The position numbers and the translations under genes were made by a program. Source: an uncultured Brachyspira sp. (GTDB lineage: Bacteria > Spirochaetota > Brachyspiria > Brachyspirales > Brachyspiraceae). Taken from it: a stretch of DNA of 64,000 nucleotides. The stretch is taken from contig NZ_CAJTQJ010000007.1 in the NCBI RefSeq assembly GCF_910578695.1, forward strand, positions 14,597 to 78,596, in the 5' to 3' direction. Of this stretch, positions 16,472 through 18,508 are shown piece by piece. Each line of letters begins with the position of its first letter. Position 1 is the stretch's first letter. The notes under the pieces were generated by a model. It was not told the origin of the DNA. It ran no database searches and saw nothing but the letters and a program-made list of their open reading frames with translations.

Positions 16472-18508
16472 ATGAATCAATTTATAGATGTAGTAAGCTT
16501 TGAGATAGAGGCAGGACATGGAGGGGCTGGAAGCGTAAGTTTTAGAAGAGAGGCACATGTACCTATGGGAGGACCTGACGGAGGAAATGGAGGAGACGGA
16601 GGAGATGTTATTGTAAGAGTTGATGCTAGAATAAATAGTTTCGGCAAAATAAAAAGCAGAAAAAAATTTAAAGCAAAAGACGGAGAACAAGGAAAGGCAA
16701 GACTTAGCGACGGAAAAAGGGGAGATGATGTTATTATAAGAGTTCCGATAGGTACTGTAATTTATGATGAAGATACTGATAATATATTGGCTGATTTAAT
16801 TGAAGACGGACAAAGCTATACTGCAGCAAGAGGAGGAAAAGGAGGAAAGGGAAATAAATTCTATGCTACAGCTGTTAATCAGGCACCAGATTATGCACAG
16901 CATGGACTTGAAGGCGAAAAATTAAATATAAGGCTTGAGGTTAAGCTTATAGCAGATATAGGGCTTGTAGGTATGCCTAATGCAGGAAAGTCAAGTTTGC
17001 TTGCAAGACTTACAAGAGCTAATCCTAAAATAGCATCATATCCTTTTACTACTCTTACCCCGAATTTAGGCGTTTGCTATTTGGATTATGAGAGAAGTTT
17101 TGTTATTGCTGATATTCCCGGTATTATTGAAGGAGCAAGCAATGGAGCTGGGCTTGGACTTACTTTTTTAAGGCATATTGAAAGAACAGGGGCTTTATGT
17201 TTTGTTATAGATTTAACTGATGAAGATGCAGCTGATACTTATAAAAAACTTAGAAATGAATTAAAACAGTATAGTAAAGAATTAATAAAGAAAAAGTCTA
17301 TTATAGTATTAAATAAAACTGATATGCTTGAAGAAGATGAAATAAAAGAAAAACTAAAAAAAATAGAAAAAGCTGTAAAAAAAGAATATAAAAATAATAA
17401 AGAATCTCATTATGAAGAGCCTGAAATATTTGCTTTATCTGTATTCAGCTTGGACGGAGAACTGCTTGATAAAGTGACAAATGCATTTTATAAGGCAAAT
17501 GAGGAAAGATATGATAATACTGTAAAGCATACAAAAGAACCTTTGCTGCTTAATCAAAATAAATCTAAATTAAAAACTAAAAGGGTGTTCGGTCCTGTTA
17601 TTTCAAAAAGGCTTGGAAACTCTTTAGGTATAGATGTGATACCGCATAAAACATGCTCTTATAACTGCATATATTGTCAATTAGGTTCAGAGGAAAATAC
17701 AAAAACTAATCTTGCGGATTATTATTCTGCTGATGAGATAATATATGAATTGAAAGAGGCTTTGCTTAATAATAAAAATATTGATTATATAACATTCGCA
17801 GGCTCAGGAGAACCTACTTTATATAAAAATTTAAAAAAACTTATTTATGAAATAAAGCAGATAACTGATATACCAGTATGCATAATAACAAATGGTTCTT
17901 TACTCTATAAACAGGAAATGCGTTCAAATTTGCTTATGGCGGATTTGGTAATACCCTCTCTTGATGCAGGAAATATTGATACTTTTAAACTTATAGATCA
18001 GCCTGACAAAGAAATAGATTTTGACAGTATGGTTAATGGGCTTATAGAGTTTAGAAGGGTTTTTAAAGGCGAATATTGGCTTGAAATATTTTTACTAAAA
18101 GGAATTAATGACAGCGAAGAAGAGCTTGATGATATAATAAAAATAGCCAAACAGATAAAACCCGATATGATACAGCTTGTTACAGCTACAAGAAGAACCT
18201 CTGATAATAAGGCTTTAGCATTAAATGATGAAGAAATGAAAAAAGCTAAAAAATATTTTGAGTTAAAATGCAGCATTAAAATAGATATTCCTAGCGTATC
18301 TGAAAATGCTAAAGGAAATACAAAAAAAATAACTGAAGAAGATATAATAAATTTTTTGATAAGACAGCCTGATACAATTCGTATGATATCAATTAGTTTT
18401 AATGAAGATGAAAGAAGAGTAAATGAATTATTAAAAAAATTAGTTGAAAGCGGAAAATTGAGAGAAGAGGTAGTTAATGGAGTATTATCTTATGCTGTTA
18501 ATATTTAA
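16472..18508 (+). CDS. obg: Obg/CgtA GTPase fused to a C-terminal radical-SAM domain
   Basis: The Obg fold is [45 protein letters not shown]. G motifs are [20 protein letters not shown] and NKTD. From about aa 372 (nt 17585) comes [32 protein letters not shown] (CxxxCxxC) and then FAGSGEPTL. The frame is uninterrupted throughout. Confidence 0.85.
   Translation: [678 protein letters not shown]

Follow-up and report, generated by a model that had tools for sequence, protein, structure and literature searches.

Obg is a universal and essential GTPase whose molecular role is still debated, and the association of a P-loop nucleoside triphosphatase (NTPase) with radical S-adenosylmethionine (radical-SAM) chemistry has a precedent in [FeFe]-hydrogenase maturation, with the GTPase HydF on one side and the radical-SAM enzymes HydE and HydG on the other. 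Within the Obg family it is the C-terminal end that varies: it may consist of an OCT/TGS-like domain of about 70 amino acids (aa) as in the Bacillus subtilis type, of an acidic disordered tail as in the Escherichia coli type, or be missing altogether. Such domains show great diversity, are attached by long flexible linkers, are invisible on the 50S subunit and dispensable for 50S binding, and it was proposed that they partner with species-specific players (PMC4028186). In crystals of Thermus thermophilus Obg, the C-terminal domain touches the nucleotide site of the neighbouring molecule (PMC4028186, PMC9545696). Obg also has published links to 23S rRNA modification enzymes, and in E. coli and Salmonella the GTPase is functionally or physically linked to RlmE (RrmJ), RluD and RluC, which modify rRNA adjacent to its binding site (PMC4028186). 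The gene described here lies on a stretch of 64,000 nucleotides (hereafter the window) from an uncultured Brachyspira sp. (assembly GCF_910578695.1, contig NZ_CAJTQJ010000007.1, positions 14,597 to 78,596), and in its product the variable Obg C-terminal domain has been replaced by a whole radical-SAM enzyme. While RlmE, RluD and RluC are separate proteins with non-radical chemistry, and the partners of HydF are likewise separate proteins, the putative partner in Brachyspira is covalently attached and the GTPase is Obg.

The gene (window positions 16472..18508, plus strand, as are all the parts given below) is one uninterrupted open reading frame (ORF) of 678 codons plus stop encoding 678 aa, and the in-frame union of Obg with a radical-SAM domain, free of stop codon and frameshift, that the initial annotation had described is thereby confirmed. 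The glycine-rich Obg fold (aa 5-159, 16484..16948) matches PF01018 GTP1_OBG with an E-value of 2.5e-54 and covers profile positions 1-155 of 155 in a Pfam scan of the fused protein. It is followed by the G domain (aa 160-345, 16949..17506; PF01926 MMR_HSR1 at aa 163-282, E 7.5e-27), inside which are found the G1 motif GMPNAGKS (16970-16993), the G3 motif DIPG (17111-17122) and the G4 motif NKTD (17312-17323). A lysine-rich flexible linker of about 25 aa (aa 346-369, 17507..17578), whose predicted local distance difference test score (pLDDT) falls below 50 at aa 350-367, leads to the radical-SAM core (aa 370-600, 17579..18271), recognized by PF04055 Radical_SAM at aa 390-552 with an E-value of 1.3e-17 and 64.9 bits against a gathering score of 29.5. 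The cluster motif CxxxCxxC (CSYNCIYC, with C395, C399 and C402) is located at 17654-17677, within a 32-residue stretch at 17591-17686, and the SAM-binding motif GSGEP at 17801-17815, within GSGEPTL; both had been pointed out by the initial annotation. The core also carries the N-terminal hairpin motif of the family. The protein ends with a winged helix-turn-helix (wHTH; aa ~620-678, 18329..18505) that aligns with the TrmB/ArsR/FeoC-like wHTH of stand-alone radical-SAM proteins and is modelled by AlphaFold2 (AF2) on the isolated domain as three helices followed by a beta-hairpin. G1, G3 and G4 are present in all 20 fused proteins examined. Two details of the first description had to be redrawn: a charged linker does exist, but most of the K/E-rich stretch (residues of about 288 to 353) consists of the last helices of the G domain and the G5 region; and the C-terminal part does contain a radical-SAM core, but it is not a barrel alone, the winged-helix tail having been overlooked. 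We regard this anatomy, Obg fold and G domain, disordered linker, then a whole radical-SAM and wHTH enzyme, as virtually certain.

By all testable criteria the N-terminal part is a genuine Obg orthologue, as initially proposed. It passes the cutoff of the NCBIfam ObgE equivalog PRK12297 (431 bits versus 406, over aa 3-362) as well as those of TIGR02729 (413 versus 280) and PRK12299 (411 versus 300), and the identity of the Obg fold across fused lineages amounts to 68-93%. The alignment to PRK12297 ends at position 352 of the 429 in the profile, the point at which the latter passes into its OCT domain, and no Pfam match to OCT (PF09269) was obtained in the fused protein, in agreement with the early view that the usually small or absent C-terminal domain had been replaced. 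The protein thus shares with canonical Obg/CgtA/ObgE the Obg fold, a TRAFAC G domain with its three motifs and a variable, flexibly tethered C-terminal module, in keeping with the published picture of the family (PMC4028186). It differs in the nature of this module, which comprises 310 aa and consists of a radical-SAM enzyme ending in a winged helix.

A likeness of the C-terminal half to a small stand-alone family with the motif GPVxSRRLGxSLGI had been noticed from the start, and it turns out to be closer than a likeness: over its entire length the fused domain belongs to this family, a large group of stand-alone radical-SAM and wHTH proteins of about 310 aa. Among 1.84 billion representatives searched, this family comprises 882 clusters at E<=1e-30, nearly all of 300-330 aa and aligned with the query from residue ~10 to ~315. 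Matches over query positions 8-317 of 319 have E-values of 1e-52 to 1e-68, and the end-to-end identity is 33-45%. Its hallmarks are an N-terminal beta-hairpin, FGPVxSRRLGxSLGID, directly before CxxxCxxC, followed by GSGEPTL, TNGSLL, PSLDA and WLE, a conserved arginine and a C-terminal TrmB/ArsR-like winged helix; the sequence motifs and the wHTH are common to the fused and stand-alone proteins. Every invariant column of the family is retained in the fused proteins, including the three cluster cysteines and GxGE, and D491, P495, E538 and R574 are retained as well. Only three cysteines being invariant, the protein is most simply seen as a single-cluster enzyme. The fused clade departs from the stand-alone family by its long branch and by the loss of two family-typical residues, the cysteine of RRPCT and the proline of RPP. 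The AF2 model of the radical-SAM domain is confident (pLDDT 92.3; predicted template-modelling score, pTM, 0.90) and predicts a partial TIM-barrel radical-SAM fold. Taken with the retained residues and with the low ratio of nonsynonymous to synonymous substitution rates given below, this model makes the radical-SAM half look active.

This family has neither a curated model nor a near neighbour among solved structures. None of the NCBIfam models comes near its cutoff with the fused domain or with six stand-alone members, and some stand-alone members bear the label 'wyosine synthetase' (COG0731) from the pipeline of the Joint Genome Institute. Foldseek searches with the domain model return generic radical-SAM cores with template-modelling (TM) scores of 0.5-0.57, 13-19% identity and a probability of 1.00, the best neighbours in the PDB being pyruvate formate-lyase (PFL)-activating enzyme, NifB, TYW1, viperins and RlmN; a sequence search of the PDB with the fused protein gave a best E-value of 0.02 (Cfr). 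The radical-SAM half does not appear to be TYW1, viperin, RlmN/Cfr, MoaA or NifB. TYW1/Taw1 (TIGR03972; PDB 2yx0) has a radical-SAM core of similar size, is retrieved by Foldseek (E 4.5e-11, TM 0.52) and falls into the same COG bin in automatic annotation, yet the fused domain scores 41 bits against a cutoff of 317.95, is 17% identical and is devoid of the second conserved cysteine set for an auxiliary cluster. With the RlmN/Cfr models it reaches 23-25 bits against cutoffs of 468-550. The similarity to MoaA and NifB is structural only (TM 0.55), the extra conserved cysteines for auxiliary clusters and the NifX domain being missing from the fused protein. As regards HydF and NifB, the latter is among the best structural matches and stand-alone relatives are found beside NifX-like proteins and P-loop Fe-S ATPases, while the HydF model TIGR03918 gives 29.7 bits with the fused protein against a cutoff of 325.55.

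The fusion is not peculiar to this assembly. An identical (100%) protein is present in NCBI and UniRef (cluster P0001) as 'GTPase ObgE [uncultured Brachyspira sp.]', and more than 120 further full-length clusters of 676-685 aa, all with Radical_SAM, come from independent Brachyspira assemblies, among which are genomes of Brachyspira aalborgi isolates with contigs up to 2.49 Mb. Near-identical clusters from B. aalborgi dominated the three homologous-protein searches; taking a divergent member as the query brought out about 12 more fused lineages of 663-677 aa and 52-70% identity, encoded on contigs of 30-37% GC with unrelated gene neighbourhoods. The junction from G4 to FGPV measures 77-96 aa and its identity drops to 9-29% in distant lineages, but its indels are all in-frame and the frame is never lost across the fused lineages. 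A separate start for the second half was considered at a GTG codon (Val372) directly before FGPV and rejected: no Shine-Dalgarno sequence lies at the proper distance from it, and the codon is not conserved, the residue before FGP being Y, K, T, M, H or I in other fused lineages, and there is no conserved internal start codon ahead of FGPV. We therefore attach a negligible probability to an assembly or annotation artefact joining two separate genes, a doubt which accompanied the first description of the gene: the same frame recurs in hundreds of independent assemblies, some of them complete or nearly complete genomes of isolates, and persists in lineages as distant as 52% identity, and no support for such an artefact was found. 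The sole apparently separate close relative, P0122, is a 297-aa radical-SAM and wHTH ORF (622..1515 of the 2-kb metagenomic contig L084), 61% identical to the fused clade (P0121). It was rejected as a split-gene relative, as it starts mid-motif at 'ALGIDV' with nothing Obg-like upstream, and we treat it as a fragment, produced by truncation, by a breakpoint of rearrangement or by chimeric assembly.

Both halves seem to have been inherited together under strong selection. Between the window protein and that of B. aalborgi, the ratio of nonsynonymous to synonymous substitution rates (dN/dS, Nei-Gojobori) is 0.076 for the Obg half (aa 1-345) and 0.072 for the radical-SAM core, while the linker (0.21) and the winged helix (0.20) have higher ratios; these values are approximate because dS is about 1.3, near saturation. 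The divergences of the two halves are correlated (r = 0.94, slope 1.1, 190 pairs), and in a neighbour-joining tree the fused radical-SAM domains form one clade on a long branch, with no stand-alone sequence inside. The monophyly of these domains and the correlated divergences indicate that the fusion arose once and that the halves were co-inherited, and no fission was seen among all full-length lineages down to about 52% identity. The simplest reading is one ancient fusion, vertically inherited, with both halves strongly selected. This is a conserved architecture of Brachyspira and of some related uncultured lineages, so far undescribed: we found no description of an Obg-radical-SAM fusion in the literature, and the database labels of the fused proteins read only 'GTPase ObgE' or 'GTP-binding protein'.

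What could a radical-SAM enzyme do at the end of Obg? We tentatively favour, while placing it somewhat short of probable, a ribosome-directed catalytic role in which Obg would deliver the radical-SAM domain to a ribosome-associated substrate and limit the time of its action. The Obg fold and G domain would dock on late pre-50S or 50S particles in the GTP- or guanosine tetraphosphate (ppGpp)-bound state, as in other bacteria, and docking would allow the radical-SAM domain on its tether to reach the subunit-interface side, the region in which other Obg proteins are thought to enlist species-specific partners through their flexible C-terminal domains. The single [4Fe-4S] cluster would reductively cleave SAM and initiate radical chemistry on a ribosome-associated substrate, be it rRNA, tRNA or a ribosomal protein. 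The winged helix would help to bind this substrate, and GTP hydrolysis would eventually free the whole protein. Because it is tethered, the enzyme would act only during the interval that the GTPase allows, and in 1:1 stoichiometry with it. The reality and single origin of the fusion, the joint inheritance of its halves, a radical-SAM half that looks active and the lack of shared neighbours at the five fused loci examined speak for this role. The predicted disorder of the linker and the intact N and G domains match the known Obg plan and likewise support this scenario, in which ribosome binding, enzymatic activity, the nature of the substrate and gating by GTP are all presumed. A more specific version, that of a new radical-SAM-dependent modification of 23S rRNA, tRNA or a ribosomal protein introduced at the subunit interface only while Obg is docked (GTP/ppGpp), seems to us doubtful.

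The GTPase-gated RNA or protein modification during ribosome maturation that the initial annotation suggested is plausible from the fusion itself, but gene neighbours, curated models and the modelled interface give it no backing, and several observations weigh against it. In its favour are the published links of Obg to 23S rRNA modification enzymes (PMC4028186) and the strong purifying selection on the catalytic half. The fused domain failed all curated models of RNA-modifying radical-SAM enzymes, its structural neighbours are generic, and the fusion is the only link between this radical-SAM family and ribosomes. The full-length AlphaFold model confirms the disorder of the linker but yields no usable interdomain geometry, with a pTM of 0.50, no confident interdomain interface and an Obg half poorly modelled from a shallow alignment. 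Docking itself may differ from that of E. coli ObgE, in which the basic loop residues K27, K31, R76, R82, R136 and R139 contact the peptidyl-transferase centre of the 50S subunit and impair 50S binding when mutated: four of the six, at aa 27-32 and 136-140 of the Obg fold, are replaced in every fused lineage (K27 by A/P, K31 by M/Q/N, R136 by Q and R139 by D), R76 is invariant and R82 is variable among fused lineages. The fused protein is only putatively the sole Obg of its genome, no second Obg having been found inside the 64-kb window, which represents part of the genome. The stand-alone family, for its part, is found in another company. A scan of species-representative genomes with the radical-SAM alignment gave 80 stand-alone loci among the matches listed; these matches are stand-alone relatives only, with no Brachyspira genome, and their hosts belong to Planctomycetota, Kiritimatiellia, Syntrophales, Aminicenantes, Spirochaetales, Leptospirales, Methanocellales and others. 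It had been asked whether relatives encode the two halves as adjacent separate genes; the answer is negative, since obg occurs within 6 kb in none of the 80 listed loci, and the Obg link is specific to the fused clade. Instead, 35 of the 80 have genes, typically directly adjacent and in about three copies, for MinD/NUBPL-type P-loop ATPases with an inserted 4Fe-4S ferredoxin domain (MinD-Fer4); other neighbours are DUF5320 (17 loci), metallo-beta-lactamase-fold hydrolases (17), TrmO_N-like proteins (13), PAS-sigma54 activators (12), ARMT1/DUF89 (12), NifX-like Nitro_FeMo-Co proteins (11) and class I methyltransferases (10). In 42 of the listed loci the flanks extend 4 kb or more in both directions, and 24 of these 42 have MinD-Fer4, DUF5320 or NifX-like neighbours, Spirochaetales metagenome-assembled genomes among them. 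Certain members of the family bear a NifX-like domain fused at the N terminus, which counts against a ribosomal role, or a methyltransferase at the C terminus. Since these neighbours are Fe-S ATPases, NifX-like proteins and the like rather than ribosome genes, the ancestral context of the stand-alone family looks like Fe-S, metallocofactor or small-molecule chemistry, not translation.

This ancestral context opens the way to a passenger fusion, which we consider somewhat unlikely: the radical-SAM half would still perform its cofactor, metallocluster or small-molecule job with no coupling to Obg, having been joined to a constitutive essential gene after loss of its own cluster, and the fusion would persist because splitting would cost one half its expression. 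Besides the Fe-S ATPases and NifX-like proteins of the stand-alone loci, the readiness with which the family fuses to other domains (Nitro_FeMo-Co, methyltransferase), a linker that is disordered, poorly conserved and variable in length, and the lack of a predicted interdomain interface all fit a mere passenger. Yet such a passenger has been kept to about 52% overall identity without fission in the full-length lineages seen, and the two halves evolve at matched rates. Furthermore, MinD-Fer4, NifX-like and DUF5320 partners were found neither in the 64-kb window nor beside other fused genes, which also have no sigma54 activator as a neighbour; as regards the window this is a weak point, given that it is part of the genome. 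The long branch of the fused clade and the loss of the RRPCT cysteine and RPP proline also suggest a changed role, at variance with a continued ancestral job. The five fused loci examined share no neighbours, and the fusion is thus the only stable association.

The domain could instead act as a sensor, the state of its Fe-S cluster and SAM site reporting oxygen, iron or methionine-cycle status and modulating the nucleotide cycle or ribosome binding of Obg; in a gut spirochaete sensitive to oxygen, the assembly of ribosomes would thereby be coupled to redox state. Clusters of the [4Fe-4S] type often serve to sense oxygen and iron, and the C-terminal domains of Obg in other species are regulatory or partner-binding, as the crystal contact in T. 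thermophilus illustrates (PMC4028186, PMC9545696). A sensor would nevertheless hardly call for the constraint of a catalytic enzyme that is seen on GxGE, D491, P495, E538 and R574, nor for the conserved winged helix as a substrate or partner module, and no interface with the G domain is predicted; we hold this possibility to be unlikely. Very improbable, in our opinion, is a nucleotide modification of viperin or MoaA type, with, for instance, GTP or (p)ppGpp as substrate, nucleotides that the neighbouring G domain handles. It is true that the best sub-threshold matches of the fused domain are NTP-using enzymes, namely viperin (NF038283, 58.8 bits), PADLOC pVip (a partial match, 51.8 bits) and MoaA (43-50 bits), and that viperins are among the Foldseek matches; these scores, however, lie far under the curated cutoffs (180 for viperin and 231-325 for MoaA, the 50-bit match facing 325), the identity to solved viperins is 15-19% with a TM of about 0.52, no better than for PFL-activating enzyme or NifB, the cysteines of the MoaA auxiliary cluster are missing with three cysteines invariant, and the gene has no defence-island context. 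Delivery by Obg to a ribosome-associated substrate, as outlined above, is the reading we favour, with the reservations already expressed.

Several observations concern the surroundings of the fused gene. The best sigma70-like promoter match (TTGATA-16-TATAAT, 11/12; 16389..16416, plus strand) stands in the 150-nt gap upstream of the gene and is a consensus match only, promoter-like sites being about as common in this AT-rich DNA as in its shuffles (29 versus 20 +/- 4.3). Neither an Rfam element around the gene nor a terminator-like site at the gene was found. Directly upstream is a gene for a 402-aa OmpA/MotB-like protein (15113..16321, plus strand), with generic MotB-type PADLOC matches to Zorya ZorB and no other Zorya genes evident; membership of the fused gene in a defence system was considered and rejected. 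Further upstream are genes for a methyl-accepting chemotaxis protein of 950 aa, whose C terminus forms a long K/E-rich tail (12242..15094, plus strand), and for a V/A-type ATPase B subunit (10746..12158, plus strand). Flavodoxins reduce radical-SAM clusters, and directly downstream of the fused gene lies a gene for a flavodoxin-like protein of 185 aa (18671..19228, plus strand; PF12724 Flavodoxin_5, E 3.2e-16). It was rejected as a dedicated reductase, as the adjacency is missing in B. aalborgi and in three other fused loci. Two adjacent ORFs of 645 and 374 aa (21675..23612 and 23615..24739, plus strand) have no Pfam match at E<=0.001, and a sigma54-dependent activator (~32203..33147, plus strand) shares 46% identity with those of the stand-alone clusters, which probably reflects no more than the general likeness within this activator family. 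In E. coli, obgE (L087) is flanked by yhbE, encoding an EamA-family transporter, with greA, rlmE and rpmA-rplU nearby. An EamA transporter is encoded two genes downstream of the fused obg in the window (19343..20284, minus strand), greA (10616..11080) is two genes downstream of the fused obg in another locus (L085), and no L21/L27 genes are found upstream of the fused obg in the window; EamA and greA may be remnants of old synteny.

As for the stand-alone genes, they recur in a same-strand cluster in many anaerobes (loci L004-L083; for example L005, L024, L036, L072 and L076), the members of which also include a 4HBT thioesterase beside the radical-SAM and wHTH gene. This cluster looks like a cofactor or metallocluster pathway that is apparently undescribed, and we found no description of it in the literature.

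The sequences themselves were already public under Obg labels; what is new is an Obg with an enzymatic C-terminal domain. The label 'GTPase ObgE' hides half of the protein, and this annotation gap concerns the very position thought to plug Obg into species-specific pathways, which here holds a complete and strongly constrained radical enzyme. As a lineage-restricted domain fusion, its significance could prove modest. It nonetheless provides a 'Rosetta-stone' link that makes the recruitment function of the Obg C terminus and the function of an orphan radical-SAM family testable together, and a single polypeptide with fixed stoichiometry offers a defined construct for biochemistry and cryo-electron microscopy. 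Brachyspira species are responsible for swine dysentery and human intestinal spirochaetosis, and a lineage-specific feature of an essential protein might define a possible drug target in this genus. Finally, should modification by docked Obg prove true, no ribosome-assembly GTPase before this one would have been seen to bear its own modification enzyme in covalent linkage, and a family of uncharacterised radical-SAM proteins, with more than 880 sequence clusters, would gain its first functional handle.

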